Shown here: piece after piece, positions 22,837-44,400 of the stretch
Layout: each line of letters starts with the position of its first letter
Numbering within the stretch: position 1 is the first letter of the stretch
Assembly: GCA_026413945.1 (NCBI GenBank)
Contig: JAOAJX010000006.1
Span: 13,577 to 77,576, forward strand
Reading direction: 5' to 3'
DNA: 64,000 bases
DNA from: Candidatus Iainarchaeum sp.
Lineage (GTDB): Archaea > Iainarchaeota > Iainarchaeia > Iainarchaeales > DTGL01
Program-made: the position numbers and the translations under genes
The notes under the pieces: generated by a model
Told to the model about the DNA's origin: nothing
What the model saw: only the letters and a program-made list of their open reading frames with translations
Databases searched by the model: none

Positions 22837-23439
22837 ATGATGCGTATGAATTCAAAAGGGCAGGCTTTCTCAACATTCCAGCTGCTTATATCTGCAATAA
22901 TTGCGCTGGCTATACTTGTGATCCTGCTTTCCGTGCTAGGAATAATTCCAAATCTTTTCAATATATCCCAGAATCCAGTGGATGCGATGGTTGACAAGAT
23001 AAAAGATGCGAGGAACAAGCCAGCCGTGCCAGTACAAGGCGGTAAGGTAAATTTCACAAAGGACAACAGAACTGTTACAACTGAAAGCATAGCAAGTGTA
23101 AGTGGTGTTGGTCTTGAAAAAGAACAAATATGCTTAAGCCCGGGCCAATTTATGGGCCAAGCAGAAATAATCAGCAAAGGCCAAGATGGTTCAAAAGAGA
23201 AGCAATGGACTGTAGTAGAGGATGGTTCAAGGATAACTTACAATAAGGACAATGTGCAGACAACATTTACAGTTATTTGCCATTCTTCAGCGACAAGGCT
23301 CAAGACTTACATTGAAGAGGATCTTCCAGAGATAAAGGTAGAGTGGATGGACAGCGGCTCTTTTAAGTGCAAGTGCCTTGATAATGAGCAATTCAAGGAG
23401 CAGCCATGTTGCCTAATAGTGCTTAAATACTCTAGCTAA
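22837..23439 (+). CDS. Pilin-like protein with a canonical archaeal class III signal peptide.
   Basis: The N-terminus is MMRMNSKG|QAFSTFQLLISAIIALAILVILLSVL, with a KG|Q prepilin-peptidase-type site. The 200-aa protein has four Cys in its C-terminal domain. Confidence 0.7.
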   Translation: MMRMNSKGQAFSTFQLLISAIIALAILVILLSVLGIIPNLFNISQNPVDAMVDKIKDARNKPAVPVQGGKVNFTKDNRTVTTESIASVSGVGLEKEQICLSPGQFMGQAEIISKGQDGSKEKQWTVVEDGSRITYNKDNVQTTFTVICHSSATRLKTYIEEDLPEIKVEWMDSGSFKCKCLDNEQFKEQPCCLIVLKYSS

Positions 23440-24173: not shown

Positions 24174-27100
24174 ATGTTAACAGATAAGCTCGGCTCTATT
24201 TACGCAGGCATAGAGGAGAAATGGTTTGAGCTGCTTAAAGCACTGCAGGAAAAAGGCATTCCTGCGTATAGCTATGCTGAGTTCTTAGAAAGCAGGGGCA
24301 TACCATCTTTGCCTTTTACAATAGCCATCATAATACTCCTTCTTGTAATTTTGTTTTCATTTTCTTTTGGGGGCGCATACACGGATGTGAGCTTAACTGT
24401 TACAATAAGGGATGATCAGGGGCAATCGCTAAGTGATGTCAAGCTCGAATTATATAATGACGATGGGCAAACACTTAAAAGTGAAACTGTGCAAAGTGGT
24501 TACAAGATTGAACTTAAAAGAGTTAAGATTGGCTCAACCATAACAGCATCTGCTTCAAAATCTGGTTACAGAAGTGCTTCGGCCGAAAAAGAGATAAATT
24601 CCAAAACCGCAACTATAAGCATAACACTTAAGAGAGAGGCAAGGCTTGTTTCTGCAAAAGTCCGGCTCATCGATGAGCTTACCTCAACCTTGATCAGAGA
24701 TGCGAGGTGCGAAGTTTCTTTTGATAAGAATACATTAGGCATTACTAGAGACTATGATGGCTTGTTTTTGGTAAATGTGCCACAGAAAACAGATGTGGTG
24801 CTAAAATGCACAGCTAATGGCTATGAAGACCTTCAGGAAGCAATGCGATTTGATGACGGTGAAATCAAAGTAGTAAAGTTGAAGCCAAAATCGGTTGATG
24901 TTAATTTAAGCACTCTACTGATAAGCGTATATGACGAGGAAACAAAGCAGCTTATAAAAGGGACAAGCATTCGCATTATAAACTCATCAACAGGCGTCAC
25001 GATAACAGACATTAATTCACAGAGCGGCGATTATACTGAAAAGATAAAGATAAACACCCAGGTTAGGATAATTGTAGAAAAAGCAGGTTATATGAGCTAT
25101 GTTGAAGATTTCACCATAAGAACCGCAGAGGTTGTTAAGAAAATATACTTAAAAAAAGGCGGTGCACAACTTATAGTAAATGTTACCTCAAAGGATGGCA
25201 TTGTGCAAGTAAATGCTGATGTTTCGCTTTTTGACTCAAACTTCCAACTCGTTTCTGCAAAAAAAACTGCCGTTTTAGGGAATGCTGCTTTTGATGGTAT
25301 TGATCCAAACAGGGATTATTATTTTAATGCATTCAAAGAAGGTTTTCTGCCGGCTTATGGAAGAATAAGTGCAGGGACCAAAAGCTTGGATATTAAACTT
25401 GAAAAGCCAACAGCACAAAATTCTGCATTGGTGAAAATAACAGTTAGGAACAGCTCAGGCAATATTACAAACAATGCAGCGCTGAAATATTATCGCATTA
25501 TAAATGCATTCAAGATTCCTCTTGGCATTCCTGTGAGAAAAACAGGGCTTACAGGCACAATTATAGAAACCCTTCCAGAGGGTACATTCCTTATAGCTGC
25601 CGAGACTGAAGTAGAGTATGGTGAAAAGGAAATAACAGTGATGGCAGGCATCGACCAACAGGTTGACATAAACATGTCAAGAAAGCCAAACTTTGTTGAG
25701 CTTCGATTAATTGATGGGAATGGAATGCCTTTGAAGGGAGAAGTTATTGTAAAGAGCAAAAGCGGAAAGACACTTTTTGCTGGAAATGTAAATGGGGGCG
25801 CGATTTTTGACAGTGAGATGAATGAAAGCTTTTTGGTGAGCGTGAAAACGCCTGATGGCAAAACATTTGAGCAGGAAGTAAGGGTTGGCGCAAACAATGT
25901 TGCTGAAGTCCGATTAGGGGCTGATAAAAAGGAACTAACAGATGGTGTCAAGCCCATAATAGAGTTTGCTGGAGTTTTTGATTCTGGAGGAAAAAGCATT
26001 GAAGGAGTTACGGCTGGGGAGTTTGCTTGGCTGCGTTTCAATGTCAGTTTTCCCCAGGGTGAGAAAACAGGCATACATATAAGGGTTGGGCCTGATAGCA
26101 TTGCGTCTGCCGATGCCCAAGAGATTGGAATTTTTGGTTTTGATGGAAATGCAAGCAGCTTTGTGTATGGCAAAAGCTATCAGGCACCTTTAGGTGAACA
26201 AAAGGATCTTGCAAGCAAAGGTGCAGCGAATGAGAGAAACAAATGGCTTGAGCTTTACTTTAACAAAGCACCATCGCAAACAGCAGTAAGCATAAAGGTA
26301 AAAACAGATAATATAAGCAGAGAAAAAGACTTTGAAGTACACTACAGAGCTTGGAGCGAAATAGGTACAAAAGTATTCAGAGACCCTGCAGACAGCGTGC
26401 TTGGAAATGAGAAAACAAGCAATGCAAAGCAAGCGCTTTATGCTGAAACAAAGATTGCAAGAGTAAAGGTATTTGAAGGAAAAGCAAGCTGCTCTGAAGA
26501 ACTCTGCATAGCTCTTGCTTTAATAGACTCAAACAATGTGAAGGTTAAAGAAGATGGTTTCTCTGCAGTTGAGGGTCAAACATATGCTCTAGAAATCTCT
26601 GTAAATTCTGGCAAAAAGATGAGTGCTGAAATTGTAGTAAGAAGCGAAAACTCAAATGTATTGCTTTCAGAGCTTACCGAAGATGTGTTGTCCTTTAGCC
26701 CGAAGGGAGAATTTTCAAAGACTGAGTTAAGGGGCTCCTTAAAACTCGAGGCAAATTCTTCAAAAATTGTAAGGGCTTACTTCAAAGGCAAGTCAGCCGG
26801 TACAGCAACGCTTGAGGCCCTTGTTAGGAGCGGAGACCTGAACGCAAATAAAAAGATAAGTTTCAATGTAACTGGAAGCAAAGAAATGCTTGCTGAAATT
26901 TATAAGAAAGGTGAAATAAAGGCAGGTGAAAAGCTAAGAGTTACCTTAAGGGATTCTGAAACAAAGGATCCCATCACAAATGCTTTTGTTTCAATAACAA
27001 GGGAAGGTGAGGTGCTTTTAAGCACTACTGGAAACAACACAAATGAAAACGGTGCAAATGGCATTTATGTCTTGGGTATAGATAAGCTAAGCCCGGGAAA

Positions 27101-30100
27101 GTATGTGCTGACAGCTAAGGCAGTTGGTTACAAAGATGCTTCTTTCCCAATAGTAATTTCAGCAGAAAAGTTACTTTCAATAGAACCACAATTAGAAATA
27201 ATGCTAAATAAGGGCGAGAAACAAAGAAGCGCAAAGCTGAAGCTTACAAATGGCTCATTTGATGTTATAGATAAGCTTGGTTATGAAGTAAAAGGCCTAA
27301 GCGGGGATACAAGCGATTTTAACATCATAGTTGCTCTGCCTCCAAAAATAGATGTCAGCAGAACCATTGATATTGAAGTGGTTGCCATATATAAAGGAGA
27401 TGTTGAGAAAAGAGCATATGCTGAATTTGAACTTATTGTTAGTGGATCTGAAAACCCAGTAGTAACTGCAAAAAGCAAAATAAAGGTTTCATACAATAAA
27501 GAGATTCCACCAGAGTGCATTGAGATTGACAAAAGTGAGGCTGAGATGCATTTCTCAGGAATTGCTGGCTCAGCTGAAGTCTTGCCTTTGACAATAACAT
27601 ACAAAAATGAAGCCTTTTGCAATAAGCCGCTTACATTCACGCCCAAGATGAAAAGCGATGATGATAAGCTTGTGCTAAGTGCACAGCCCTTCACCATAGT
27701 GCCTGGTGAAAATAAGACTATTGAGCTGAAAATAACAAACAATGCAGAAAGAGTGGGTGTGTTTGAGCAAAAAGTAGAAGCTACGGTATTCCTAGAAGCA
27801 CCCGAGGTTACGAAAAGCATTAGCTTGGGGATATTATTTACAGATCCTGCTTATGCGCTCCAGACGAATGATAACATACCGATATTCATGAGTTTTGATG
27901 TTGCAAAAGGCAGCTTTAGCGGAACAGCACCTTTGTTTGCGAAGAACTTTGGCAAAAAGGTTATTGAAAATATAAGGTGGAGCGTTAAGCCACCACAGCA
28001 GATTGAAATTTATATAACTTCTACAACCGGCAGTGGTAGTGGACAGCCACAGAACATTCCCAACCAGCAAATGCCTGGAATGCAAAATTTCATGCAAGCA
28101 CCAAACACGCCTTACATACAAGGAAACCCTTCAATGGCCGGAACCCAGTTTGCTGTAACCCTTGCTCCAGGCGAAGAAATGGAACCAAAAACAGTATTGG
28201 CAACAAGCACTGCAGCTAACCTCACAAGAGGGCCTCACAAGGGCGAGATAATACTGACTGGAACTGTCGATGGCAAGCAGTTCCAAAAAGTAGTTTCGAT
28301 ATGGGTATTTGTTTCAACAGCACAATGCATAAAAGTTGCCCCAGCTGATGAGCTTTACTTCTCAAGTGAGGATTCATCTCAGGGTGTAATAGCAAAGAAG
28401 ATAACAATAAAGAACGAATGCGGAGAAGTAGCCAGGAACTTTATCCTAAAGCCCCAAAACCTTGGAAACAACACTTTGAGCATAACACTTCTTGGCAATA
28501 AGGACTTTTTGTATCCTGATGAAAGTGCACAAGCACAAATAGTTCTTACAAAGCGCGGTGATTACTTCAATGCTCAAAGGCCTGATAACATAATTGTTAG
28601 TGTTTTCCTAGTAAATAGCCAGAAATTTGTTGATTCTAATCCCTTGCCTGTGCTTATTGAAGTAGGAAAGAAGCCAGATGTATCTGCTGGTCCAGTTTAT
28701 AAAGAAGTGCAAATACCTGTTTGCGGCGAAACATCTTCAGTTAAAAAATCAGTCCAGTTCCCTGTAATGAGTGCAGATATTGGCTGTGATTCTGGCTACT
28801 GCGACGCAGTGCAGCTTTCTGGCTATATTGTGGAGCGCATAAAAGGTGTGATGCAAAAAGTTGACAAAGTGCTGCAGCAAAACGATTTGGTGAGCAGCTA
28901 TGCTATGTGCAGCCAGTTGGAAGGCTTCTGCAGCTTTTCTGCAATGGGCATAGTGCCTGAAGTTTACACAGTTTATATGAGAAATGATTCTTTTGGAAAA
29001 GAAGTTCTGCAAAGAAGGGTTGAAAGCTCAAAGGAGTTTGCAACATTTGTAACAGAATATTTCCAAGGCGATGTTAGTGAGATAGTAAAGAGCGCAACTG
29101 GTTTCACAACAAGCAAAATATTCATGACAAAGCCTCTTGTTGGCTGCGGTCGCTATAAGATATCAATACAAGGCGCTGTGCAGAATATTCAAGGGCGTTT
29201 GTCAAGAGAAAACTACTTTATACTTGTAAAAATTGTTGAAGATAGGAAAGTTACGCCTGAGTGCATGATGCGTATCCAAAACATTGCAAATTTCTTACCA
29301 TTAGATCGTGGGCTTGCTGCTGACAAACATTATAATACCTGGCTCGGAACAACCGAGGGTTTGGATGCCACACGTAAAGCAGCTGAGCTTTTTGCACAAA
29401 AGCTTTTTGATGATAAGAGCAGAGTTAATGTTGCATATCACACGAATAAGCTTAAAGTTATTCTCGGTGAAATACCTGAAAGCGGCATTGCAAAGATTTC
29501 AATGAACCAGGTATCGCAACAGCAGGCACAGCCTGCAACCCTTGGCGTTACAATAAATAAGCTTTATGTTACGCTTGACGAAAAGATGCAGGATGAAATG
29601 ATTGCAAAAGCATCTGAAGCGCTTAAGCAACTCATGGAGGGCTCATTTACTGTTGAGGGCTGCATAACAAAGGATGACTCTGCACTTGTAATATCAAAGC
29701 TCGAGCACACCGGCGACCTTGACATTGAGAAAGCATCAGACACAATTGAACTTTACTATAGTATGCCTATGTGCGTTGATATGAACGTAGTTAGCACAGT
29801 TCTTGAGCCGGTGGTGCTAAAAACAAGCTTTGCTTCGATGAAAGACAATGAAAAAGCAGGTATTCAGGATGTTTGGATTGAAGTCGATGGCAAGAGAATT
29901 TCAGAGTACTCTGAAAGGCAGGAGGGGACGCCAATCACACTTGAAAAAGAGGGTGGAGAAGAAAGCAAAAAGTTTAAGAAAAGCTTTAAACTATGCGTAA
30001 AGGCAAATGATGCTTACTTTGAGCTTGCTGCAGGCAAGAAGATTGGTGTGAAAGCCAGAAGCGTTATATTTGCAACTAAGGAGATGCGCTCATGGAAGGA

Positions 30101-32252
30101 AGTAACACTTGAGCTTTGTGGGATACACCCATATAAGCTAATTCAAAAGATGTCTAATGAAAAAGTAGAGCCTGGCAAAAGCAAGGTTTTTTATGCAACG
30201 GTTGGCTGGAAAGGCGAGCCAAATGAGATTGACTTTGCTGCTACAACTAGGGGTTTGACTGCAAGCGATCGCTTGAAAAGAGCACAAGAGCTCATGGAAG
30301 ATGTTGGCAAAGGCGGCCGCATTGATGATTCGCCAATAGGCCAGAAAATATTGGGCCTGAAAAGGCAGGGTTATGGGCTTTATTTCGGTGCTTGCTTAGC
30401 CGTATCTTTCATCTGCCATGTAGTTACAGGTTTAGATCCTCTTGGCATTAGGGCTCTAATAAATGCCATGATCGACTGTTTGCCTGCAACAATAGGGGGG
30501 CTTTTTGGCACTACAAAAGCGGGGCAGGGGTTCCAAAAAGCTTTAAACGATGCTTGGGAAAAGGTTAAATCAAATCTTAGATGGTTCTATGCGCCATGGA
30601 GCAGCGGAAAGGCAACTCCAAATACAGAAGCGGGGCTTTATGGGCAAGCAATGGATGAATTCTGGGATAATGCAGTGCCTGCTGCAATATTGGGCTTTGA
30701 GGCAGATTGGCTTGCAACAGAATTGCGCTCTTATGTTTACTCAAGAGGTTGGGCAAACAAGACAATAGGTAGCACCGAAGCCATAGATACAATTGCTGAA
30801 CAGATGGCAAAAGATGCAACACAAAAGTTTACCTCAAAGTATCTAAAAGGTGTTACGACGGCAGCATCGGATGATTTTATTAATGCTTTTACCCCTCAGT
30901 TACAGAGTTCATTACAAGAAAGCATTTCAAGCACATTAAGAAAAAACAGCAGCATGACATTTGGAAAACTTATTCAAGATAAAGCGGTTATGCAAAGCAT
31001 GTGGCAAAAGGCAACGTCGGATGAGAAAATAAAAACGCTTGTTTACAGCAAAGGGTTTGGCCGCGGAGCAGAAATAGAAAAACTTATTAGCAGCCACGCT
31101 GAAGATTTCCTTAGAAAAAGCGTTGATCCTAAAGATATAAAAGAAATTTTTGGCTCAAGCTCTGTCAGCCAAGAAGATCTCGCAAAGGCAATTGTAGATC
31201 AGATAGATAGCGCTGGATACAAAACATATGGAGTTAGGTTAACAAAGGATGTGCGAAAAGGTCTAATTAGTTCAGCAAAAAAGGGTATTAGCAAGGGTCA
31301 TATTTATGCAGATAGTATAGAGGGACAAGTGAATAATGCCTTAAAACACATACATATGGATAGAAGTAATGAGCTCATGCAAATTTATGGGCAAAATGTA
31401 CTTGACAATCTTGATGATGTAATGGCCCAACCAAAGCAGCCCGGGGCTTTTAAGAGAATGATTGAGGCAATGAAAACAAGGAGCTTTTGGGCACGCTTGG
31501 CAAAAAGCATTGCCTGTGGCGCTGTTTCAAATGCTGCAGGATATGCTGCTTATTCAAGCCATGTAAAAGGCGGGATTGAAGAACTTATGGACAAGGGGTA
31601 TATTCCAGAGGCGGGAGTCAGCGTTGGAGATCCTTCAAAGCTTATCAGCGGCTACACAGGCCCTAAACTTATGAAAAATAGGACTTACAAGATAACAATA
31701 AGCAAGGATGATTACGGAAACATAAGCTACAATCTTGAGCTTGTGGATACAGAAAAAGAAATAGAAGAAATGCGCGCTGCCATAAGCAAAAACCCTTCTG
31801 CACTGTGGCGCGAAGATTGTAAAGAGTACCGTGAAAAAGGCCTTTCTGAAATGGTCGGTTGCTTGGCACCAAAAACAGGTGATTACATAAAGCCAGAAGA
31901 GGTTGTCGCTTACTACAAAAACAGCGGCTTTATAAGGGAAGCTTCAATACAATTCAATGTGCACGAAGCGCTGATAATGGCTGCGCTTACAACAAGATTT
32001 GAAAACTTCGAGCCGTGCCCTGTAAACCAGAAATGGTACGAAGGCGAAGACAGTGAAAGAAAGCTCACCATAAAATGCGTAGCAATGCACATAAGTGAGA
32101 AGCTTGCAGCAAATCAGGATAATATAAGGTCTGCATTTGAAGTCCTTAGCAAAGAAAGGTCTGCTGATAAAGCAAGAGCCTACGCGATGGATGTCGAAGC
32201 TAAATACAGGATGTGGAAAACATACGACACATGCAAAGGAGAAGGGGGCTAA
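24174..32252 (+). CDS. Giant (2692 aa) type-II membrane surface protein, paralogue A of four. It has an N-terminal cytoplasmic segment and a single TM, then tandem prealbumin/Ig-like domains, a conserved central module and a helical C-terminal region.
   Basis: The N-terminus is ...EEKWFELLKALQEKGIP...LPFTIAIIILLLVILFSFSF. About 10 or more ~85-aa beta-rich repeats follow (for example SLTVTIRDDQGQSLSDVKLELYNDDGQ). Motifs shared with giants B-D are NKWLELYF, ALYAETK...ASCSEELC and CDSGYCDAVQ. A Q/N-rich linker lies at about 28020-28140 and a hydrophobic segment at 30364-30515. Confidence 0.85.
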   Translation: MLTDKLGSIYAGIEEKWFELLKALQEKGIPAYSYAEFLESRGIPSLPFTIAIIILLLVILFSFSFGGAYTDVSLTVTIRDDQGQSLSDVKLELYNDDGQTLKSETVQSGYKIELKRVKIGSTITASASKSGYRSASAEKEINSKTATISITLKREARLVSAKVRLIDELTSTLIRDARCEVSFDKNTLGITRDYDGLFLVNVPQKTDVVLKCTANGYEDLQEAMRFDDGEIKVVKLKPKSVDVNLSTLLISVYDEETKQLIKGTSIRIINSSTGVTITDINSQSGDYTEKIKINTQVRIIVEKAGYMSYVEDFTIRTAEVVKKIYLKKGGAQLIVNVTSKDGIVQVNADVSLFDSNFQLVSAKKTAVLGNAAFDGIDPNRDYYFNAFKEGFLPAYGRISAGTKSLDIKLEKPTAQNSALVKITVRNSSGNITNNAALKYYRIINAFKIPLGIPVRKTGLTGTIIETLPEGTFLIAAETEVEYGEKEITVMAGIDQQVDINMSRKPNFVELRLIDGNGMPLKGEVIVKSKSGKTLFAGNVNGGAIFDSEMNESFLVSVKTPDGKTFEQEVRVGANNVAEVRLGADKKELTDGVKPIIEFAGVFDSGGKSIEGVTAGEFAWLRFNVSFPQGEKTGIHIRVGPDSIASADAQEIGIFGFDGNASSFVYGKSYQAPLGEQKDLASKGAANERNKWLELYFNKAPSQTAVSIKVKTDNISREKDFEVHYRAWSEIGTKVFRDPADSVLGNEKTSNAKQALYAETKIARVKVFEGKASCSEELCIALALIDSNNVKVKEDGFSAVEGQTYALEISVNSGKKMSAEIVVRSENSNVLLSELTEDVLSFSPKGEFSKTELRGSLKLEANSSKIVRAYFKGKSAGTATLEALVRSGDLNANKKISFNVTGSKEMLAEIYKKGEIKAGEKLRVTLRDSETKDPITNAFVSITREGEVLLSTTGNNTNENGANGIYVLGIDKLSPGKYVLTAKAVGYKDASFPIVISAEKLLSIEPQLEIMLNKGEKQRSAKLKLTNGSFDVIDKLGYEVKGLSGDTSDFNIIVALPPKIDVSRTIDIEVVAIYKGDVEKRAYAEFELIVSGSENPVVTAKSKIKVSYNKEIPPECIEIDKSEAEMHFSGIAGSAEVLPLTITYKNEAFCNKPLTFTPKMKSDDDKLVLSAQPFTIVPGENKTIELKITNNAERVGVFEQKVEATVFLEAPEVTKSISLGILFTDPAYALQTNDNIPIFMSFDVAKGSFSGTAPLFAKNFGKKVIENIRWSVKPPQQIEIYITSTTGSGSGQPQNIPNQQMPGMQNFMQAPNTPYIQGNPSMAGTQFAVTLAPGEEMEPKTVLATSTAANLTRGPHKGEIILTGTVDGKQFQKVVSIWVFVSTAQCIKVAPADELYFSSEDSSQGVIAKKITIKNECGEVARNFILKPQNLGNNTLSITLLGNKDFLYPDESAQAQIVLTKRGDYFNAQRPDNIIVSVFLVNSQKFVDSNPLPVLIEVGKKPDVSAGPVYKEVQIPVCGETSSVKKSVQFPVMSADIGCDSGYCDAVQLSGYIVERIKGVMQKVDKVLQQNDLVSSYAMCSQLEGFCSFSAMGIVPEVYTVYMRNDSFGKEVLQRRVESSKEFATFVTEYFQGDVSEIVKSATGFTTSKIFMTKPLVGCGRYKISIQGAVQNIQGRLSRENYFILVKIVEDRKVTPECMMRIQNIANFLPLDRGLAADKHYNTWLGTTEGLDATRKAAELFAQKLFDDKSRVNVAYHTNKLKVILGEIPESGIAKISMNQVSQQQAQPATLGVTINKLYVTLDEKMQDEMIAKASEALKQLMEGSFTVEGCITKDDSALVISKLEHTGDLDIEKASDTIELYYSMPMCVDMNVVSTVLEPVVLKTSFASMKDNEKAGIQDVWIEVDGKRISEYSERQEGTPITLEKEGGEESKKFKKSFKLCVKANDAYFELAAGKKIGVKARSVIFATKEMRSWKEVTLELCGIHPYKLIQKMSNEKVEPGKSKVFYATVGWKGEPNEIDFAATTRGLTASDRLKRAQELMEDVGKGGRIDDSPIGQKILGLKRQGYGLYFGACLAVSFICHVVTGLDPLGIRALINAMIDCLPATIGGLFGTTKAGQGFQKALNDAWEKVKSNLRWFYAPWSSGKATPNTEAGLYGQAMDEFWDNAVPAAILGFEADWLATELRSYVYSRGWANKTIGSTEAIDTIAEQMAKDATQKFTSKYLKGVTTAASDDFINAFTPQLQSSLQESISSTLRKNSSMTFGKLIQDKAVMQSMWQKATSDEKIKTLVYSKGFGRGAEIEKLISSHAEDFLRKSVDPKDIKEIFGSSSVSQEDLAKAIVDQIDSAGYKTYGVRLTKDVRKGLISSAKKGISKGHIYADSIEGQVNNALKHIHMDRSNELMQIYGQNVLDNLDDVMAQPKQPGAFKRMIEAMKTRSFWARLAKSIACGAVSNAAGYAAYSSHVKGGIEELMDKGYIPEAGVSVGDPSKLISGYTGPKLMKNRTYKITISKDDYGNISYNLELVDTEKEIEEMRAAISKNPSALWREDCKEYREKGLSEMVGCLAPKTGDYIKPEEVVAYYKNSGFIREASIQFNVHEALIMAALTTRFENFEPCPVNQKWYEGEDSERKLTIKCVAMHISEKLAANQDNIRSAFEVLSKERSADKARAYAMDVEAKYRMWKTYDTCKGEGG

Positions 32253-32257: not shown

Positions 32258-33949
32258 GTGAAAGTCCGTGGTTTTAATCTGTTTACAGCACTACTCGCAA
32301 TGATAATTGTCGTAACAAGCTCCATGCTTGTGCTAATAATGATACAAAATGAAAGAAACGCGAACACCATTGTCGAAAATGCAACAAGTGATGCTAGGCT
32401 TGAAGCGGTTATAAGGACAATGCGCACAGATGTGCTCAATTCTTTCAACCATTATGTTAGGGAAGAAATAGAGTACTACACAAGCATGAATCCCATTCCA
32501 ATAGAAGATCTCTCTGTTTGGGAGGATTGGGATACACTCATAAGGTATTTTATACACGGTTACTTTGGACGTAGTGGTTCACCCATGTTTGCATCACAGA
32601 TAGCAAACAGCATGCCAGAAATGATAAGAAGCTACCGCGAAACCCTAACTTATGAAGCACGTTACAAAGTTGAAGTTGTCGGCGACGATGAAAAGTTAAA
32701 GGATGCAATACTTGAGCTAATACTTGTATCAGCAGAAGAAGATGATTTCATTGAGGTAATTCAATGTGATGGCACACCGCAGGGCTGCCCCATTGGAAGC
32801 TTTTATATTAATCTTAGAATAACAAAGCTGAGCAATGAAAAATATGAAAGCTTGCCAAGGATTGTGGTGCAAGACCTTGTAACAAAAAAAGAGATTAGGG
32901 AAATAATACTTCCAAAGGCAGACCTAAAGATGTATGTCCCATCACGGCTTTTTAAGGCAATGGCTTATACGAGATATTTTATGCATACTGACTTAACTAA
33001 TGTAAATTCTTCTAATGATTATGGTTATTTATCTCCAAGAATACACAATGAGATTGATTCAATGGCTTTAGGCATCTGTGACTATGGATTTTGCAAACCT
33101 CGGGAAAATCCATACTTTCCACCAACTGCAAGGTTTATTGAGGACAAAGGATGTCCCAATAGCGGCAGAAATCAGTTAGATAAAGTAATTGGGAATTTTA
33201 GAGGCCATTCTTTTGTCTATAACCCATCAGATGGTGCTGATTTAAGAGAATCTCTTGAGAAGCTTGTAAAGATGCGCATATGCGATCTTTCTGCAAAGCA
33301 TGTTGCACCTTTAAGCACAGATAAATTCACAGTTGCGAAGGGGCCTTCTGTGGAAGGCGTTGATTGCTATGTTACGTTTGATAGGGTTTCAGCAACTGCT
33401 ACATCTGCGAAAAAAGTAGAATATTCTTTGCCGGGCCTTACTTTACCAGGCATAATGCCACCCCAAGAGCCAAACAATCCAAGTGCATGTCCCTTCAATT
33501 TCAACTTACCACAAAACCGAAATTTGGGGTACTACATAGAAGGAAGCAAAATTAAGTGGCCGTCAGAGAAAACAATTAGCGTCCATCAAGACGTTTGTAG
33601 TGCACTTTTAGCTACTGTGCCAGGCCTTGAACAAAAGCTAAGGTTTTGTGGTGTTCAAAATTGGAGTTGTTGTGCAGAGATTGCTGAAGCTACCTTTGTA
33701 GTTACTTTTATAGAAGGCGATGCAAACTATAAGGTAAACAAGAACAGGAATGTGAGATTTATGTTCCAGATTCCTGACATGAGCTACACGCCATTTAATC
33801 CAAATTACACTTCTGGATCAGTGCTTGGAACGCTTGGTTGTGCTTTAGAGCATCAGCCGAGATTACAAAGCTGCAACCCAGATCAATGGACTTGCCAAAC
33901 ATATGAGTATCAGGGCAATGTATATGGCTGCTATCCAAAAGTGCCATAA
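32258..33949 (+). CDS. Pilin-like, Cys-rich 563-aa protein with a class III signal peptide-like N-terminus.
   Basis: A GTG start is preceded by a strong SD-like ggagaaggggg about 10 nt upstream. The N-terminus is MKVRG|FNLFTALLAMIIVVTSSMLVLIMIQ. There are more than 20 Cys in the C-terminal half (CDGTPQGCPIG, CDYGFC, CGVQNWSCC). The start lies 5 nt after the stop of giant A. Confidence 0.6.
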   Translation: MKVRGFNLFTALLAMIIVVTSSMLVLIMIQNERNANTIVENATSDARLEAVIRTMRTDVLNSFNHYVREEIEYYTSMNPIPIEDLSVWEDWDTLIRYFIHGYFGRSGSPMFASQIANSMPEMIRSYRETLTYEARYKVEVVGDDEKLKDAILELILVSAEEDDFIEVIQCDGTPQGCPIGSFYINLRITKLSNEKYESLPRIVVQDLVTKKEIREIILPKADLKMYVPSRLFKAMAYTRYFMHTDLTNVNSSNDYGYLSPRIHNEIDSMALGICDYGFCKPRENPYFPPTARFIEDKGCPNSGRNQLDKVIGNFRGHSFVYNPSDGADLRESLEKLVKMRICDLSAKHVAPLSTDKFTVAKGPSVEGVDCYVTFDRVSATATSAKKVEYSLPGLTLPGIMPPQEPNNPSACPFNFNLPQNRNLGYYIEGSKIKWPSEKTISVHQDVCSALLATVPGLEQKLRFCGVQNWSCCAEIAEATFVVTFIEGDANYKVNKNRNVRFMFQIPDMSYTPFNPNYTSGSVLGTLGCALEHQPRLQSCNPDQWTCQTYEYQGNVYGCYPKVP

Positions 33950-34059: not shown

Positions 34060-37000
34060 ATGCCATTTACTGAAGCGCTCAAGGAAAAGTGGGAGAATTT
34101 TAAGTTTTGGCTTGAGGAACACAACATCCCAATACCTTTATTTTTTATATTAGTTATTTTAGCGATAGTTGCGCTTGCGTATTTTTTAATAACCATGTTT
34201 TTACCTACAGAAGAAGTATATTATTCTCTTAAAATAACTGTTTTGGATAGGCAAAATCAGCCCATAAGCAACGCTACTGTCACAATTAAAAGCGAGTTTT
34301 TTAAGGAAAAGACAGAGAAAACAGATTCTAGGGGCAGAGCATCTTTTGAACTGCCAGCAAAGAAAGAATTTACAGCAATAGCAACCTATCAAGAGAAATC
34401 TGCTTCGCTAAAAATGTCTCTTGAAAGTGACAGGGAAGAAAAAATTGTGCTTCCAATTGAAATCGTTACTTATGCTGATAAAAAAGTAATATTTTACAAA
34501 GGTGAAACTTCTGAGAAGGCAACCGAGATAAAAGATTTTTCAGCATATTGCTCAAAAGCTGAGTGGAACAAAAACCTTTTGGCTTCTGGCGGTGAGGCCA
34601 CTCTTGAAAAAATACCAAGTGACTGCGGAACATTAACATTGCGCATCGGAAGTGAGATATATACAACAACAGACGTAAGTGCAAGGCCTTTTGAGGTCAG
34701 GGTTAAAAGCATTGCAACCAAAGGCAGCATTCTTGCAATAATAAAAAGCTTAGAAACTGGGCTTGCTGTAGGTGCTGGTGAAGTAAGTGTTTCCCTAATC
34801 AATGAATTTGGAATTACTATAGAGGGCCCTCTACCAAGTAGTGCCGCTGGCTCTGTTACTTTTACTGATATTGAACCTGGCAAGTATGCTGTAAGCGTCT
34901 CTGGGGCTGGAAAATATAAAAGCACAACAAGTGAATACAAAGAACTAAAGGGCGCGGGACAAGTAATATTTGATGTCAGTTTACAGCCTGCTGAAAAGGT
35001 TTATAACATAAAAGTGCGAGTATCTGACACAAAAAGCCAACCAGTAAAGGCAATGCTCGAACTCAGAGATCTTTCAAACAATATCATAGTGCAAAGCAGA
35101 TATGCTGATGACAAAGGCGAATACACATTCAAAGTTGATGAGAACAAAAGCTATAACCTTATAGTGAAAGTCGGCGAATGGGTTGAAAATTTCAATGTGA
35201 GGCCTAGCGAATCTTTTTACGATATAACATATGATGAATCAAAGCTCAGTAAATGCGCAACATTATTTGTTTATGTGAAAGACTCTGAAGAAAAGGCACT
35301 TGAAAAAGCAAAAGTGGAAATCTTCAAAAAGAGCAATGAATCTGCTGGTCTACAATGCTCTACAGGTGCAGACGGCAAATGTGAATTTTACAACCTGCCA
35401 GAGGGCCTTTACTATGCCAAAGCATCTTTTGCAAATTATCCGCCTGTGCAAAGCGGAATTTTTGAGGCAAAAGCAAACATGCAGAAGCCGATTGAAGTTG
35501 TAATTAAAATAGAGATTCCTAAAGCTCAATTCGAGTTTGTTGTTTATGGAGAAAACGATGAAAGATTGCAATCAGTAAACATAACTGCTTATGACTCTGC
35601 CTCAAGCAATATTCTGGGAGAAAGTAAAACTGATACAAACGGGGTTGGTAAAATTTCAGTTCTTGCAGGCCTGAAGCCATACTTTGTTATAGACGCAGAA
35701 GATAGTGATTACCTACCTTATATAACAATGCCAATGAGCGCAATTTTCGGCATTAAAACAACTAGGGAGATAAGATTAGTAAGAGGAAAAACACTGAAAA
35801 TAATTTTTGACGGCCTTAAATCGCAAGATGGTAATGCGGAAAAAACACTAAGTGCTGGTAGTGCCTATAATGCAAAATTCAGACTGATTGTACCAAATAA
35901 AGGTTATACTAGTGCGGGCATTTTTGTTATTTCCGGCAATGACATTTCTGGTAAAACAAACTTGATGGAAGAAGACACAACCTATCTCGGTGGCATAAAA
36001 ACCTCTGCAACGAGAATCTCGCGCGGAACCTCTTATACGCCACCGACAGGAACAGCCACAGACCTTGAAAGTGCTACAAATGAAAATGCTAAATGGGTTG
36101 AGATGGAATGGTCACTATCAAGGTTGGGCGTAAGTGGTGGTGTGTTTGAGGCAGAGGTTGAGTATTTTGTAAAGGAAGGAATTTCTGCTGGTGAGTTAGC
36201 AAAGATTGGTTATAGAGGATATGCGCAAGCAGATAGTGTAGACAGAGATCCTAAAGACAATATCTTGGGAAATAAGAAAAATTCACCTGAAAAGCATGCA
36301 CTGTATGCTGCAACATATAGCTTAGTTTATTCAGTGGGCGAAACAAACCTTTGTGATGGCAAGTTCTGCAAGAGCTTTTCCATAGAAGATATTCAAAGAA
36401 GAACCAAAAGCTTTGTAACAGATACCTATTCTGCACAGCTTAATAGCAACTACCGCCTTAGCTTTGTGATTAATAGGCAGGCCGGATCTTCAGGCAATGC
36501 AACACTTAGAATATTTGATGAGCAGCGCGCATTTAGCTATGGTAAATATGAGGTTATAATCCCTGATGGTTCTGAACAAAAAGGAACTGCGGAAAAGGAG
36601 CTATTGGTAAATTTGGGCTCATTTAGGCAAAATTCATCAGTATCGGGAACGCTGCAGTTTTCTACTTTGAAGGAAGGGGATATTCCTTTAAAAATTCTTA
36701 TAGAAGACGCATCTGGAATTGTATTTGAGCATGTGATAACAATAAAGGTAGCGCCTGCAAGAGAACTTTCTTTAGATGTTGTGCCAAAAATACTTATAGC
36801 TTTGGTAGATAATGAGGTGCTCTTTAGGTTTACAGATAAAAATACTGGTGAACCAGAAAGCAATGTTTCAGTTACGCTTTATCTCGATGATAAGATCATT
36901 GCTTCGGGAATTACAGATTACGATGGAGTTTTACCATACAAAATTGAATCACCCTCTGCTGGCTCTGTTTTAAAAGTCGTTGGTAGAAAGACCGGCTTTA

Positions 37001-40000
37001 GAAAGTTGGTTCAGGAAATCAAAATAGAATCTAGCGCTTTAAAATTAACCCCGCCAACTCTTGACTTGGAGCTGCAACCAGAAAGTCGTGAAGAAGCAGA
37101 GCTTATTTTTAGAATTGAAAACCAAGCGCCTTTCAAGTTGAAAATTGGTGCAATAAGTATTGATGGCCTAGAAGATCTTGTAGTTGTGGGTGATATCTCT
37201 TCGTATATTGGTAAAGAAATTGCTCCGAGCAAAAGTTTAGACGTAAAACTCAAGGCCAAATTAAGTGATAAAGGTAAAAATATAGATGTAACAAAAGAGC
37301 TTTTGGGTGCAATATCTGTCACCACTGAAAGTTCATCACCAGCCAAGGAATGGACCGGATCTATTGAGCTAAGGGTGAGAATAAAGCTTGGCTCAGCACT
37401 TGACAGCATAAAGTGCTTAGCTGTTGAGCCATCATCTTGGGAAATAAAAAGTTATGGCGAACAGAAAAAGCTTACCTTAACAATAAAAAATAACTGCACA
37501 GTCCAGGGCATACCTGTGCCACTCAAGGAATTAAATGCTAAGGTTAGATGGCTTGGTGAGAGCGCAATTGGCAACTTCCAAATAAGTGGAGACGATCTCG
37601 AAACAACAGAAATTGAAACACAATGGACAACAATAAGTGATTCATTGGCTAAAAGTGAAGAGCGGGAATTCATTTTGTTCTTTAATCCAAGCGCTCAACT
37701 GACAAGTGCGAATGCTCAGCCAAAGATAGAGTTCTCAGCAAATTATTATTCAGATAAAGGCATAGATAAGCCGAAAGCAACTATGAACATAAGCATAAGC
37801 GTAAATAATTTGCTCAAATGTTTGCAGATCGTAAGGCCTCAGGGCATAGAGCTTAAGACTTGTGGCTTTGACACGGGATGGGGTCTTAATACAAAATACT
37901 TTGACAGAGATCCTTACGAGGCAGCGCAGCAACAGCAGTATTTCGCATGGCCCACTGTGCAGTATATACCACCGTGGCAGACATCAGCACAAGGGCAAAG
38001 CACCCAATGGAAATGCACATCAGATAGCGCTGACATAATCATAGATAATTCTTGCGCCCAGGACGTTGATATAACTGTGCAGGCCGATTCTGGTCTTATT
38101 GCAAAGCCAACATCTTTGAAGGTAAATGCAAACTCATCGAAAAGCTTCAAAATTGAGCCAGCTACAGCTAAAGGCCAATTTAATGTTAAAGTCCTTGCAA
38201 AGTTTAGTTCATCAAGCAAAAGAGCTGAAGAAATAGACAACTTTGCTGTCAAGGTTGTAAGACATGATGAAATGCTAGAGGAATGTTTGCCAATAATAGA
38301 GCCAAGGACTTTAAGAGCTAACTTTCTTGGCTGGCAGCACACAGTTGCAAAGATATATAACAAGTGTTACCACCTCGGTTATGCTTTAAGCCAGCTTAAG
38401 CTTAGCAACATACATTGTTATTCACCTTCAAGCAAAGGCACATCGCTTGAGGGACCATGCCCAATGATAAAAAATATGGTAATTGCAAATACTGAAACAA
38501 AAAAGGTTTCAGAAAGAGAAGAATGGGAAATTATGGAAGTGCACCTATGGTTTGATCCCAGCATAAAGGAAGTCAACCCAATTGACTTTGAAGGATCTGC
38601 TGAAGAAGTAATAGGTAACATAAGGGTCATAGCAACAGACCAGTATATGGCTGCTGTATCACCGGGAATAATTTCGGTTCCAATGAAAGTACCAATGTTG
38701 GGAGAAAAGTACTTCCCGGTAAGCGTCACATTTGAGAATCCCCTTGCATGGCTTGGCCTTTTAGGTGGCCTTTTAAATAAAGGCTCAGACAAGCTCGAGC
38801 CAGCACAATGCATAAACCCAAATGCATTAATAGTTCCAGAGCCACTCACAGACGATCACTTTGTTGATGATTTGTTTATATGGAAGGAAAGCCCGCCTGT
38901 GACTGAGTTAGTGCTACCATATGCTAGATCAAACGAAGAAGTTAATCCATCTGGTGAAGGTGGAAGGGCTTTTTGTGGGAAGGACGACTATATAAGCAAC
39001 GTTGGCTTTAACTCATGGGAAGACCCTAAGTCGGGTGTGCGCCTTTACTTTGAGCTCACAAACGACAAGCATCATATTGTAATGAAAGTAGACAGAAGTA
39101 AAATGATAACTGAGTGCGCGAGGATAAATATTGAGCTTCCAATCAAGGTAACAAGAGTTTACTACAAAAAAGGCACACAAGAAGTAAAGCTTAAAGTATC
39201 TGTAAATGTATTGAACAAAGGAATTTCACAGCTTTCAGATGGTTGTGAAAACAGGGCTGCTAGGCTCAACGTCATGCCTAGCTGGGGCGTAATAAAGCCA
39301 TGTGATGGCGAGGATAAATATGAGAAGTATGGCTTTGACCGGCTTCTGTTTACATGGCGTACGGATGATATAACTACAAAAACTTGCGAACCTGAACCAA
39401 AAGGTGATGGTTATTTCTGCGATGGTGCGCAGTTTGTAATGCAGACTGCAGCCAAAATAAGAAAGATAAACCAAAGGGTAAGTGAGATAAATACAAGGTT
39501 GCCAGCTGAATATCAGGCAGCTGTTTCTGTAATAGGCAAGAGTCCAGAATTAGTGCAAGAAATAAATTCATCTGAAGGGAAACTATATAAGATTTTCAAG
39601 TCGCAGTTCATACTGCGTGACGATGTCTCAAACAGCAGTGCACTTGTTTTTGTTTCCAAAGAAGGCCTTTTGCTAGGCCAACCGCCATTGCCTCAAGAAG
39701 CTTGCAGTGCATCACACATAGAGACTACTCTTAGTAACATAATAAAGGCACCTCAAAATGAGCTCGGTGCGATAGACGCAATGAATATTTCATTCGCACA
39801 ATTCGAAGCCCTTTTAGCAAAATGCTATGGTAATGACATTGGTATGGGAAATGCGGTTGCTTTAACTTCAAAGGAAATCGATTATATTTCTGATGTTCAA
39901 AACATATGGAGCAACATTAGGAAAGTAGCAGATGAGATAAAGCTTCCGAGACAAAATGCATATGCTCTTACATTTTCAGAATATCTTACCATACACGAAC

Positions 40001-41379
40001 AATTAACCGCTGGAGTAAAAGCAAACATTGTTCAGAAAAACAGAAGTGCACCCATAACCGTAAACATTGGTCAAACTTCCATAACTGCTACGGAACAAGA
40101 ATGGACAAAGTTCCTATTAGAATATAGCAAACGCACCACTTTTATGCTTGTAGTTATGAATAAGCCAGGCCTTTCTCAAGCAATGGAAGAATATATAAGA
40201 ATAAGAGCTCAAGACATCCTCGGTAAAACAGAGGAAGAAAGCCTTATAGCAAGTGCAGAAGCATATCTCAAAACAGATAACCTAAGCCGCGCACTTATAG
40301 AAGACCTCGACAAAGGAAACGAAACACTCAAAATGCTTGGTCTCAAAGTTGATCAGCTTGAATTCAAACGCTACGAAGATATTAATTTTAAAGATGAAAT
40401 TTCCCAGAAAAGGACAGAATGTGGCGTAGTTTCTGGCAAATATTTTTACAGAATTGAGCCGAAGATTGCTATTGATTATGCAAGCAACCCGCCAAAGATA
40501 ATTGTTATGCAATACATTGTAAAGCTAGCACTTACAGAATCACTCGAAGCCATTGACAAAAGAAAAGGAACTAAGTTTTCAGAAAATCCTCTGATGTATA
40601 TGTCATTTGATGGAGAAATAGGTAAAGAAAGTGTTGGTGCAAACTACGGTGTTGGTATAACACTAGCAGGTGCAGTACCTTCTGAGCTGTTCTATAATGA
40701 ACACGGCGAACGCATTTATCCGAGAAAGCCGGGCGTCGCGCCATTGTCATTCTCCTATAATGGGAAATTTGAAAAGAGCAGGACTGGTGTTTTAGTTAGC
40801 ATAGACCTTAAGTCAAAAAAGATGGAGTATATACCAAGCTATCCTTTTATGCTGAGAATTATCTCGAAAAATGAAGGTCAAAATGTGGTATATTACAGAT
40901 TGAGCAATAGAGAATATTATGGGGATATCAAGGAGCTTTTCGTTTGGCACCAGCCAAGTGAATCAAATACTGAAGGCACTGAAGCAAAGCCTTTTAGTGT
41001 CGACAGCTTTGGTATGCAAGAGCCAGATAGCTTTTGCTCTGGTTGGTCACAAAAAACAGAGGCAGCAAAGCTTATTATCGGACAAGGTGCTTGGTTTGCC
41101 ATGAGCTATGTTCCTTCAAGGGCCGCAAATGAATACCTCAAGCTTGAGCTTATTTGTGCAAAAAATCCCGTTGTTTTAAGCACAGTCACTTACGAAGGCC
41201 AAGAGTACAGCACCTCTGAAAGCCGTGGAGTCGAAGGTGGCACCGTAAGAATAATAGACACTGCAAGGCAGCCATCGCTTAAAGAATATATTGAGAAGAT
41301 TGAAACAGGAGAGATATGCATAGAAAATATCAGCAGGACACAACTAAAGCTAAGATGGAATCCAGCAATATTTGGGTAG
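34060..41379 (+). CDS. Giant (2439 aa) type-II membrane surface protein, paralogue B.
   Basis: The N-terminus EKWENFKFWLEEHNIP plus TM LFFILVILAIVALAYFLITMF parallels giant A. Shared modules are AKWVEMEWS, ALYAATYSLVYSVGETNLCDGKFC, GDGYFCDGAQFVMQ and a C-terminal LKLRWNP. Confidence 0.85.
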   Translation: MPFTEALKEKWENFKFWLEEHNIPIPLFFILVILAIVALAYFLITMFLPTEEVYYSLKITVLDRQNQPISNATVTIKSEFFKEKTEKTDSRGRASFELPAKKEFTAIATYQEKSASLKMSLESDREEKIVLPIEIVTYADKKVIFYKGETSEKATEIKDFSAYCSKAEWNKNLLASGGEATLEKIPSDCGTLTLRIGSEIYTTTDVSARPFEVRVKSIATKGSILAIIKSLETGLAVGAGEVSVSLINEFGITIEGPLPSSAAGSVTFTDIEPGKYAVSVSGAGKYKSTTSEYKELKGAGQVIFDVSLQPAEKVYNIKVRVSDTKSQPVKAMLELRDLSNNIIVQSRYADDKGEYTFKVDENKSYNLIVKVGEWVENFNVRPSESFYDITYDESKLSKCATLFVYVKDSEEKALEKAKVEIFKKSNESAGLQCSTGADGKCEFYNLPEGLYYAKASFANYPPVQSGIFEAKANMQKPIEVVIKIEIPKAQFEFVVYGENDERLQSVNITAYDSASSNILGESKTDTNGVGKISVLAGLKPYFVIDAEDSDYLPYITMPMSAIFGIKTTREIRLVRGKTLKIIFDGLKSQDGNAEKTLSAGSAYNAKFRLIVPNKGYTSAGIFVISGNDISGKTNLMEEDTTYLGGIKTSATRISRGTSYTPPTGTATDLESATNENAKWVEMEWSLSRLGVSGGVFEAEVEYFVKEGISAGELAKIGYRGYAQADSVDRDPKDNILGNKKNSPEKHALYAATYSLVYSVGETNLCDGKFCKSFSIEDIQRRTKSFVTDTYSAQLNSNYRLSFVINRQAGSSGNATLRIFDEQRAFSYGKYEVIIPDGSEQKGTAEKELLVNLGSFRQNSSVSGTLQFSTLKEGDIPLKILIEDASGIVFEHVITIKVAPARELSLDVVPKILIALVDNEVLFRFTDKNTGEPESNVSVTLYLDDKIIASGITDYDGVLPYKIESPSAGSVLKVVGRKTGFRKLVQEIKIESSALKLTPPTLDLELQPESREEAELIFRIENQAPFKLKIGAISIDGLEDLVVVGDISSYIGKEIAPSKSLDVKLKAKLSDKGKNIDVTKELLGAISVTTESSSPAKEWTGSIELRVRIKLGSALDSIKCLAVEPSSWEIKSYGEQKKLTLTIKNNCTVQGIPVPLKELNAKVRWLGESAIGNFQISGDDLETTEIETQWTTISDSLAKSEEREFILFFNPSAQLTSANAQPKIEFSANYYSDKGIDKPKATMNISISVNNLLKCLQIVRPQGIELKTCGFDTGWGLNTKYFDRDPYEAAQQQQYFAWPTVQYIPPWQTSAQGQSTQWKCTSDSADIIIDNSCAQDVDITVQADSGLIAKPTSLKVNANSSKSFKIEPATAKGQFNVKVLAKFSSSSKRAEEIDNFAVKVVRHDEMLEECLPIIEPRTLRANFLGWQHTVAKIYNKCYHLGYALSQLKLSNIHCYSPSSKGTSLEGPCPMIKNMVIANTETKKVSEREEWEIMEVHLWFDPSIKEVNPIDFEGSAEEVIGNIRVIATDQYMAAVSPGIISVPMKVPMLGEKYFPVSVTFENPLAWLGLLGGLLNKGSDKLEPAQCINPNALIVPEPLTDDHFVDDLFIWKESPPVTELVLPYARSNEEVNPSGEGGRAFCGKDDYISNVGFNSWEDPKSGVRLYFELTNDKHHIVMKVDRSKMITECARINIELPIKVTRVYYKKGTQEVKLKVSVNVLNKGISQLSDGCENRAARLNVMPSWGVIKPCDGEDKYEKYGFDRLLFTWRTDDITTKTCEPEPKGDGYFCDGAQFVMQTAAKIRKINQRVSEINTRLPAEYQAAVSVIGKSPELVQEINSSEGKLYKIFKSQFILRDDVSNSSALVFVSKEGLLLGQPPLPQEACSASHIETTLSNIIKAPQNELGAIDAMNISFAQFEALLAKCYGNDIGMGNAVALTSKEIDYISDVQNIWSNIRKVADEIKLPRQNAYALTFSEYLTIHEQLTAGVKANIVQKNRSAPITVNIGQTSITATEQEWTKFLLEYSKRTTFMLVVMNKPGLSQAMEEYIRIRAQDILGKTEEESLIASAEAYLKTDNLSRALIEDLDKGNETLKMLGLKVDQLEFKRYEDINFKDEISQKRTECGVVSGKYFYRIEPKIAIDYASNPPKIIVMQYIVKLALTESLEAIDKRKGTKFSENPLMYMSFDGEIGKESVGANYGVGITLAGAVPSELFYNEHGERIYPRKPGVAPLSFSYNGKFEKSRTGVLVSIDLKSKKMEYIPSYPFMLRIISKNEGQNVVYYRLSNREYYGDIKELFVWHQPSESNTEGTEAKPFSVDSFGMQEPDSFCSGWSQKTEAAKLIIGQGAWFAMSYVPSRAANEYLKLELICAKNPVVLSTVTYEGQEYSTSESRGVEGGTVRIIDTARQPSLKEYIEKIETGEICIENISRTQLKLRWNPAIFG

Positions 41380-41453: not shown

Positions 41454-44400
41454 ATGGGAATAATGAGTTCTTTGCGTGAATTTTATTACCATTTAGAGGA
41501 TCGCTACTATGAAGTAATAGACAAAATAAGCACTAAAATACCCATAAACAAATTAACAGATGCTATTGACAAAGTTTTTCCTTCATTTATTCTTTTTATA
41601 ATACTTTTATTTGTACTTTTAGCAGCTTTAGTGCTTTTTTTAATTCCATCCGTGGTAATTCCAAAAGATGTCGCATTAAATGTTTTTGTACAGTATCAAG
41701 ACAGGTTTGGTGCAAAAAGACCTCTTGAGGGCGCAAAAATTGAGATAATCGTTGGTGAAAAGGTTCATAGGATAACAACATCAGAAAATGGAAAAATTCA
41801 GCCAATAATCCTCAAACCAAAAAGTGAAGTAATACTGCGCGTTTCAAAGGATGGTTTTAAGCCAAACCCGGCTGAGAAAAGCATAACGATGGAGGATGAA
41901 AATGCACAGGTAAGCTTTTTGCTTACAGAGATAATAAAGACACAGAGCATTAGCTTCAAGATTATAGATGAAAATACAAAAAGCCCAATAGTGAAGCGCG
42001 TATCATTATCATTTGAGTGCTCAAACAAAAAAGCAAATCCGCCAAAAGCTGCTGAAAAATACACTGATTATAGCGGCAGTATCCAAATAGATGATGTTGA
42101 GATTGACTGCTTACCATTGCTAGTAACGGTAAATGCGCAGGAGTACGAAACAGCAGAAAATGTCAGTGTTAGAGATGGTACCACAATAGCTTTGAGGAAA
42201 GTTGTAGAGCTTAAGCCGGTAGAACAAAAGGGCAGGCTAATTGTAAATGTCACCTTTAGAGGTGAGTTGCCAGAAGAGAATATTATTGTTGATCTTGAAA
42301 AGGATACTGGTGCAGCCCCAATTTTTATGGAATCTGGAGTTACTAGCAGTGGCCAAGTTGTTTTTGAAGTCTTGCCTGGTAAATACCGAGTAAGAACAAA
42401 GGCAACTGCAAATTATAGTGTTGCGGAATCACAATTTATAAATGTTGGTGCAAACGAGAATAGGTCAATCAGCTTAGAAATTCAGAAGATAATAATTGGC
42501 AGTATAAAGATACAAGTTTTTGATAAAGACAACTCAAAGCCATTAGCAAATGCCAGAGTAACATTAATTAAAGATAATACTCAGTTTGCATGCGCAGATA
42601 CAAATGCTGAAGGCAGAGCTGATTTCCATCTATCCAAAGACGAAAATTTCTTGCTTGTCGTTGATCATCCTGATTACTGTGTTTATCGCCTTAGAGATGT
42701 GAGAAAATCGGATAGCATTCTTAGAATAGGCCTTGTAAAATACACTCAAGATTGTGGCGGCTCCATATCAGTAAAGGTTATCGACTTTGAAAAGCGTGCC
42801 ATTTCAGGTGCAAAGGTTGCTGCCTTTGATGAAAACGGTAGCAGCCTTGGGCTAAAAGAGTTGATAACAGACATAAACGGCATCGCGGTATTCAAAGGGT
42901 TTTATCTCGGAAGATACAAATTCTTCGCATATAAGGGCTTTGGAAGCAGCTGGAGCGATATTATTGAGTTCTCGCCAAGATTGGGCACTGAACATGAAGC
43001 AGTGATCGTATTAAGCATCCCTAAGGCAACTCTAAAACTGAAAGTAACTAATGATGGTGGTGAAGGCCTTCCATTTAGTGATGTTATTGTAAAAGATGCA
43101 TACACTGATAAAGTAATAAAGGGGCCACTAAAAATTGAAAATATTGGTGGAGATATTGACATAAACATAGATGCCGGCTTTTCTTTCTATTTGTATATAA
43201 ACAACCCAGATTACGCACCATACATAAGCGAAAGAATAGTGCTTAAGCCAGAAGAGCAGAGGCAAATGCATGTAAAGCTTGAGCCAAAGAGAATAAGTGG
43301 CGAAATAGCCATTGAATTCTTAGGCCTTTTTAAAGATGGGCAAAATGCTGTTGTGCTTGCAGCTGGAAAAGAATACATGGCAAAGTTTAAGGTTTCTGTC
43401 CCAGAATCTGCACAATATGATAAATTCGGGGTGCATCTACGAGTTGGAAAATACAATATAATGGAAAAAGACTTCTTGTTCATAAAAGAAATTTATGCTG
43501 GCGGAAACCCAAAAATTATTCGGGGCATTTCATATAGCCCAGAGCAAGGCATGGGTCATGATTTCAGTCTATTGAGCACTGAAAGTGCAAAATGGGTTAA
43601 TCTTGAATGGACAAGATTGAGTGGTGGCACCATTTATGTTTACGCAAAAGTTAAGGTAAAAGAATCCGCATCCTCTGAAGAGCTAAAAGTAATGTGGCGT
43701 GCTTGGGGCCTTAGAAAAGGTTTAATGGTAAGAGATCCTGAAGATATGGCTTTAGGCAATGCTATGAGCGATGCAGAGCTTTATGCGAAAACGTATGAGC
43801 GTATTTATAATGTAGGAGAAGAAAAGCTTTGCACAGATAAGTGGTGCACTGTTTTCAAAGCACTTGATATTGAGGAAAATGTTGCAACATATATTGATGG
43901 AAGCTATACTGCAAAAGTTGGAAAACCTTACAAGCTATACTTTAGTATAGCAAACAGTAGCAAATTTGAAACTGACACTTTTACAAATGTCAAGCTGAAG
44001 ATATTTAATACTGAAAAAAACATAACCTTTGGAAACTACATTGTTTATGGAGAAACGGTTGTTAAAGGCAGTGCTAATGCAAATGAAACACCATACATTG
44101 AAGTGGGAAATATAAAGCCAAATAATGAAATTCATGGTGAGATAGAATTTTCGCCAAAATCAGGCAAATTTGGAAGCATAAATTTACGCTTGCACGATCC
44201 AACAAAGCATGCGCACATATTCGAAGAAACCATTGCGGTTAGCATAATTGCGGCAAGAAACTTCACGATTGACTTTAAGGTTGGTGAAAGCTTTCAGTCA
44301 GAGGCGCCTCTGCTGCCAAGCGGTGTTGAGAATACAATTATTGCTAGAATAAGGGACAAACAATCTGGGCTAGAAGTGTCGGATGCTATAGTTAAGGTTA

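Follow-up and report, generated by a model that had tools for sequence, protein, structure and literature searches.

According to published surveys, large adhesin-like proteins are frequent in the System-2 class of archaeal type IV filament loci, and large, cysteine-containing proteins with signal peptides are interpreted as minor pilins or adhesins (Makarova, Koonin & Albers 2016, PMC4858521; Sivabalasarma & Albers 2026, bioRxiv 10.64898/2026.04.22.720090). The locus examined here lies in a 64,000-nt stretch of DNA (the window) from an Iainarchaeota (DPANN) archaeon. In common with the System 2 / clade 2 and Thermoproteales systems of those surveys, it has an ATPase with a long N-terminus, one platform gene and several small pilins of predicted class III type close by, and its 563-aa protein resembles their adhesin-like products in being large, signal-bearing, equipped with conserved cysteines and of the predicted minor pilin or adhesin type. 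Unlike those products, the 563-aa family has no detectable arCOG, Pfam or NCBIfam assignment and is confined to DPANN-type archaea. Its genes are also locked between those for N-anchored giant proteins (2,300-3,000 aa), with an archaeosortase-like gene in front, an arrangement that the accessible text of the two surveys does not describe.

Streptococcal and archaeal modular proteins provide a further comparison. S. sanguinis PilB (PMC8179133) and the class III substrate-binding proteins of the Sulfolobus bindosome use a short class III leader and a hydrophobic alpha-1 helix to mount a large functional ectodomain on a scaffold of the type IV filament kind, and the 563-aa protein is predicted to be built likewise. 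Its ectodomain differs from these proteins in matching no known module, be it a vWA, lectin or solute-binding fold, and the gene is not linked to ABC transporters. GspK is a large tip pseudopilin without Glu5, a residue missing from the 563-aa family alike. In GspK and the minor pilin PilX, both bacterial (PDB 3ci0_K and 2opd_A), a small sheet carries the packed N-terminal helix, an arrangement that the modelled 563-aa protein may share; they have no sequence similarity to it, GspK is about half its size, and, unlike GspK, it comes from an archaeon without an outer membrane or type II secretion. Neither Pfam T2SSK membership nor clear structural homology, the marks of a GspK-type tip pseudopilin, was found.

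Coordinates of the features in the window, all on the forward strand
Feature	Position	Strand	Basis
Type IV filament module: ATPase, platform, two small pilin candidates	17659..23439	+	Pfam, NCBIfam, N-termini
Exosortase/archaeosortase-family membrane protein, directly 5' of giant A	23453..24103	+	Pfam, TIGR04178
Giant A, 2692 aa: cytoplasmic head, one N-terminal TM, CarboxypepD_reg/Ig-like domains	24174..32252	+	Pfam, TM scan
SD-like G-rich motif GGAGAAGGGGG	32238..32248	+	Read from sequence; 9 nt 5' of GTG, within giant A's last codons
Gene for pilin-like, disulfide-rich surface protein (predicted), 563 aa	32258..33949	+	GTG start, TAA stop; ORF list and translation
Predicted class III leader M-K-V-R-G	32258..32272	+	Arg at -2, Gly at -1; predicted cut Gly5/Phe6
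Residues 3-77, predicted as one unbroken alpha-helix resembling pilin alpha-1; includes Glu32	32264..32488	+	AlphaFold2
H-domain F6-M28 (FNLFTALLAMIIVVTSSMLVLIM), hydrophobic, opens with F-N-L-F-T-A-L	32273..32341	+	Kyte-Doolittle scan
Ectodomain core conserved family-wide, residues 78-305; invariant C170/C177, C274/C279/C299	32489..33172	+	
C-terminal half, residues 306-563, lineage-variable, 11 Cys, conserved G-C-Y-P end	33173..33946	+	Alignment; model
Giant B, 2439 aa, conserved downstream partner	34060..41379	+	Pfam, TM scan, synteny
Paralogous surface proteins with an N-terminal anchor: giant C (2826 aa), giant D (2296 aa)	41454..56848	+	Pfam, TM scan, synteny

The 563-aa open reading frame is a genuine gene, conserved among DPANN archaea. 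Its homologues span 24% to 93% identity, and dN/dS against the 93%-identical orthologue is 0.028, indicating strong purifying selection and a reading frame that is more than chance. The first-pass annotation had placed the GTG start 5 nt past the stop of giant A, and with that TAA at 32250-32252 the gap is exactly 5 nt. The codon directly before the GTG is an in-frame TAA (32255-32257), making the GTG the earliest possible start, while the alternative start at Met15 would delete the conserved N-terminus. A strong Shine-Dalgarno sequence had also been proposed; the motif GGAGAAGGGGG is indeed present, but many of the window's genes have a comparable G-rich motif at -6 to -15, rendering it typical there rather than unusually strong. 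Downstream, a 110-nt AT-rich spacer separates the gene from giant B, bearing out the proposed position between the two giants. Scans for tRNAs and base composition around the gene gave nothing unusual, and the family HMM found no paralogue among all six-frame ORFs of the window. The same search revealed no similarity between the family and the giants, and the idea of a fragment split from a giant was rejected; a viral or mobile origin was likewise rejected, no relatives having appeared in a scan of viral contigs.

Close homologues number 32, and an exhaustive HMMER search extends the family to 195 clusters at 50% identity, all hosted by Iainarchaeota (Diapherotrites), Micrarchaeota or unclassified archaeal MAGs. 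Hot springs and hydrothermal sites are among the environments from which MAGs with the gene come. Outside the N-terminal motif the members are just 25-40% identical. Searching the whole protein against Pfam and NCBIfam returned only a sub-threshold match to DUF2140 (E 0.05) and no pilin family, and literature searches on pili, giant proteins and prepilin peptidase of DPANN archaea and Iainarchaeota gave no description of the family, only general remarks on large adhesin-like proteins in archaeal filament loci. The roughly 195 clusters make up a family that lacks annotation: neither Pfam nor NCBIfam has an entry for it, and no relative has a solved structure.

The N-terminus (MKVRGFNLFTALLAMIIVVTSSMLVLIM) is the most conserved part of the family. 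It carries the motif [KR][GA]|F[NT]LFTAL, the bar marking the predicted cut, five residues from the start, in agreement with the pilin-like reading (MKVRG|...) made at first sight. Residues F6, L8, F9, T10, A11 and L12 are near-invariant in the alignment of 33 homologues, and the motif occurs once per locus, in this family only, across about 500 kb scanned. Among 150 family members, position -1 is Gly in 62% and Ala in 37% (either in 99%), position -2 is Lys in 52% and Arg in 42% (basic in 94%), and the modal leader length is five residues; positions -1 and -2 lay outside the anchoring pattern. The archaeal processing-site rule used for comparison requires Gly, Ala or Ser at -1, a charged residue at -2 and a following H-domain of about 20 residues (PMC4371748). 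In the window protein these positions are occupied by Gly5 and Arg4, and the five-residue leader runs into an H-domain of 23 hydrophobic residues, the only TM segment detected by the Kyte-Doolittle scan. The N-terminus therefore conforms to a prepilin-type signal of archaeal class III, with predicted cleavage after Gly5. Its peptidase-type site also separates it from a plain TM anchor, the outcome that would have spoken against the early reading. Glu32 (mature +27) is 96% conserved and Met+23 is near-invariant as well, both lying at the outer membrane boundary.

The signal departs from the known motifs in several respects. The bacterial N-methylation motif G|FTLIE (PF07963, TIGR02532) shares G-1, F+1, T+2 and L+3 with the family consensus [KR]G|FTLFTAL, and differs from it in the Ala found at -1 in 37% of members and in Thr replacing Glu at +5 in 90%; Ser accounts for another 9%, and the Glu or Asp sought at +5 is thus not the family residue. 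A Pfam scan of the N-termini of ten members gave nothing above threshold. PF07963 N_methyl matched two distant members below threshold (best E 0.0017, 18.3 bits vs a cutoff of 21.2) and did not match the N-terminus of the window protein, while the TadE/G-like family PF13400 matched one distant member weakly. Applied by hand, the published FlaFind motif, [KRDE][GA][ALIFQMVED][ILMVTAS]x3, fails on RG|FNLF at +2 (Asn) and +4 (Phe). As both this motif and Pfam N_methyl miss [KR][GA]|F[NT]LFTAL, current prepilin predictors may miss it. No prepilin peptidase (peptidase A24) gene was found in the window or in the 10-kb flanks examined.

The AlphaFold2 model of the protein (m6c8912015aa1), with its single helix over residues 3-77, is confident, with a pLDDT of 87.6 and a pTM of 0.82. 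The first-pass annotation counted more than 20 cysteines in the C-terminal half, which is wrong: the whole protein holds 16 (2.8%), at positions 170, 177, 274, 279, 299, 342, 370, 411, 447, 464, 471, 472, 528, 539, 546 and 558, of which 12 fall in residues 282-563. Six of them are nevertheless invariant across 33 homologues and another six are conserved in at least 90%, suggesting that the cysteines are meaningful despite the lower count. Distant relatives cover less of the C-terminal half in HMMER alignments. Foldseek returned no PDB fold match for the full model (best E 0.58), and PDB sequence searches with the family profile stayed empty whether the limit was set at E 1 or E 10; structure comparison showed weak similarity to the pilin fold. 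The ectodomain is, at the level of the model, a cysteine-stabilised fold without a solved relative.

Among the surrounding genes, the giants form the most constant part of the neighbourhood. The 563-aa protein and all four giants are each anchored N-terminally by one TM helix. An orthologue of giant A lies upstream of the gene in nearly all loci with enough flank, and the order archaeosortase-like gene, giant A, 563-aa gene, giant B, giant C is kept in Iainarchaeota loci down to 27% identity. The core order of giant A, 563-aa gene and giant B persists in distant members at 24-25% identity, usually with an archaeosortase-like gene ahead of it. Conservation at the same position, which the early reading had listed as a check, is thus found in related arrays, and these do not lack the gene. 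In the Micrarchaeota-type loci L004 and L005 the giant-gene-giant unit stands without filament genes within 10 kb, and around the distant member L028 neither giants nor filament genes occur nearby. Based on this synteny, the 563-aa protein probably works together with the giants; co-expression with giant A is only plausible.

The filament module lies 9-14 kb upstream of the 563-aa gene on the same strand. It comprises a T2SSE/FlaI-like ATPase of 759 aa, a T2SSF-like platform protein of 785 aa and a pair of small candidate class III pilins, one of 148 aa with NKG|Y and the other of 200 aa with SKG|Q, in a layout matching 'System 2' of bioRxiv 10.64898/2026.04.22.720090. Linkage to an ATPase and a TadC/FlaJ-like platform is seen in the window (17659-22308) and in Iainarchaeota loci, where the giant-gene-giant array often adjoins a System-2 filament locus; within 10 kb, ATPase and platform are absent in L004, L005 and L028. 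The gene had been proposed to link the pilus machinery to the giant proteins. Its association with the giants stands, being tighter and more widespread, whereas that with the pilus genes is looser, the Micrarchaeota-type loci having none of them within 10 kb.

Taken from sequence and synteny, the reading we favour, at a probability of about 0.5, is that the 563-aa protein would be a large minor-pilin-like adaptor or tip protein partnering the giants. The protein would be made with the five-residue leader MKVRG and inserted through Sec with its N-terminus inside the cell, where a PibD/FlaK-type prepilin peptidase would cut after Gly5, as the motif suggests; the window encodes no such peptidase. 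The mature protein, from Phe6, is predicted to begin with a helix of about 72 residues, its first 23 hydrophobic and carrying FNLFTAL. With this helix the protein may join the core of helices in a short filament or pseudopilus, which the System-2 ATPase and platform protein nearby would assemble together with the small pilins. The size of about 60 kDa and the single copy suggest a low-abundance minor, tip or priming subunit rather than the main building block. Outside the cell, the ectodomain is predicted to hold up to eight disulfides in its fold without a solved relative. Its conserved residues 78-305 probably contact the N-anchored giants encoded on both sides, and the variable C-terminal half may follow lineage-specific partners or targets; it is synteny that suggests a physical partnership with the giants. 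The net role would be that of an adaptor or tip coupling or organising giant adhesin-like proteins at the cell surface. The points against this reading are the lack of a linked peptidase and of a pilin family match, Thr at +5, the FlaFind-motif failures and the contexts of L004, L005 and L028.

Several of these points fit a different picture, in which the N-terminus stays uncleaved as the signal anchor of a type II membrane protein and the FNLFTAL helix is a TM-TM motif pairing with the single N-terminal TM helices of the giants. Bound to the membrane, the protein would then serve a surface complex of giant proteins as scaffold, chaperone or stalk subunit, with no need of type IV filament machinery. 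The tightest linkage is to the giants and not to ATPase and platform, L004 and L005 do without filament genes within 10 kb, and the protein shares its one-helix anchoring with all four giants. Moreover, the prepilin peptidase is not linked, all pilin family matches remain below threshold with weak fold similarity, and the near-invariance of Met+23 and Glu+27 is in keeping with a specific contact between helices or at an interface. A TM-TM motif alone, however, leaves the fixed Gly or Ala at -1 and Lys or Arg at -2 unexplained, as it does the constant distance of five residues from the start codon, which is the exact geometry of a prepilin peptidase site, and the Iainarchaeota loci have the filament ATPase, platform and pilin set directly upstream of the unit. 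We regard this signal-anchor arrangement as possible but doubtful. An ordinary soluble protein secreted through Sec, whose class I signal peptide is cut off behind the hydrophobic stretch, would share the positively charged N-terminus and the hydrophobic segment behind it, but is very improbable: the stretch spans 23 residues (7-15 in a class I h-region) and is modelled as one helix to residue 77, no small-x-small site follows it (the next residues are IQNERNANT), and conservation peaks at its start and not at its end.

The class III-type N-terminus is also expected of an adhesin that the System-2 filament carries as a minor or tip pilin and that is directed at a host cell or substrate; the adjacency of the giants would then reflect only the co-regulation of surface genes. 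The variable C-terminal half is what a recognition module would display, one distant family member lacks the giants, and there are known modular pilins onto which an adhesive domain has been grafted, such as S. sanguinis PilB (PMC8179133). Such an adhesin is nonetheless quite unlikely here, as the order giant A, gene, giant B survives to 24-25% identity and across phyla, even without filament genes, which is more than co-regulation calls for. The best-conserved stretch of the ectodomain is also family-wide, suggesting a conserved partner, as the adaptor reading would have it.

Most DPANN archaea are thought to be attached to other cells, and their attachment machinery is largely unknown. If the 563-aa protein links the giants to a type IV filament, it would open a large apparatus to study through one small and tractable component; its size of 60 kDa and its confident model suit it to cleavage assays, antibodies, pull-downs and cryo-ET labelling. 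Even as a membrane anchor it would still be a conserved subunit of a giant-protein module. An extended version of the adaptor reading, unlikely as it stands, is an undescribed surface apparatus widespread among DPANN archaea, in which a disulfide-rich, class III-processed protein of new fold is the obligatory adaptor between N-anchored giant adhesins (2,300-3,000 aa) and a 'piston' or stalk formed by a type IV filament, and in which the archaeosortase-like enzyme contributes to maturation. Such an apparatus could extend, position or release the giants for host-cell attachment. Two related candidates were rejected: the giants as class III substrates, their TM following cytoplasmic heads of about 20-45 residues with no consistent Gly or Ala site, and the 563-aa protein as a PGF-CTERM-type archaeosortase substrate, which would carry a C-terminal sorting motif, then a TM helix and a basic tail; its last residues are GCYPKVP, and the TM scan placed no helix at that end. 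Nor did the scan place one at the C-termini of the giants. The archaeosortase-like gene itself scores 26.6 bits against Exosortase_EpsH (Pfam) and 35.1 bits against TIGR04178 (cutoff 23), and is kept at the same position in related loci. In some other loci, toxin-antitoxin genes lie between giant A and the homologue of the 563-aa gene.

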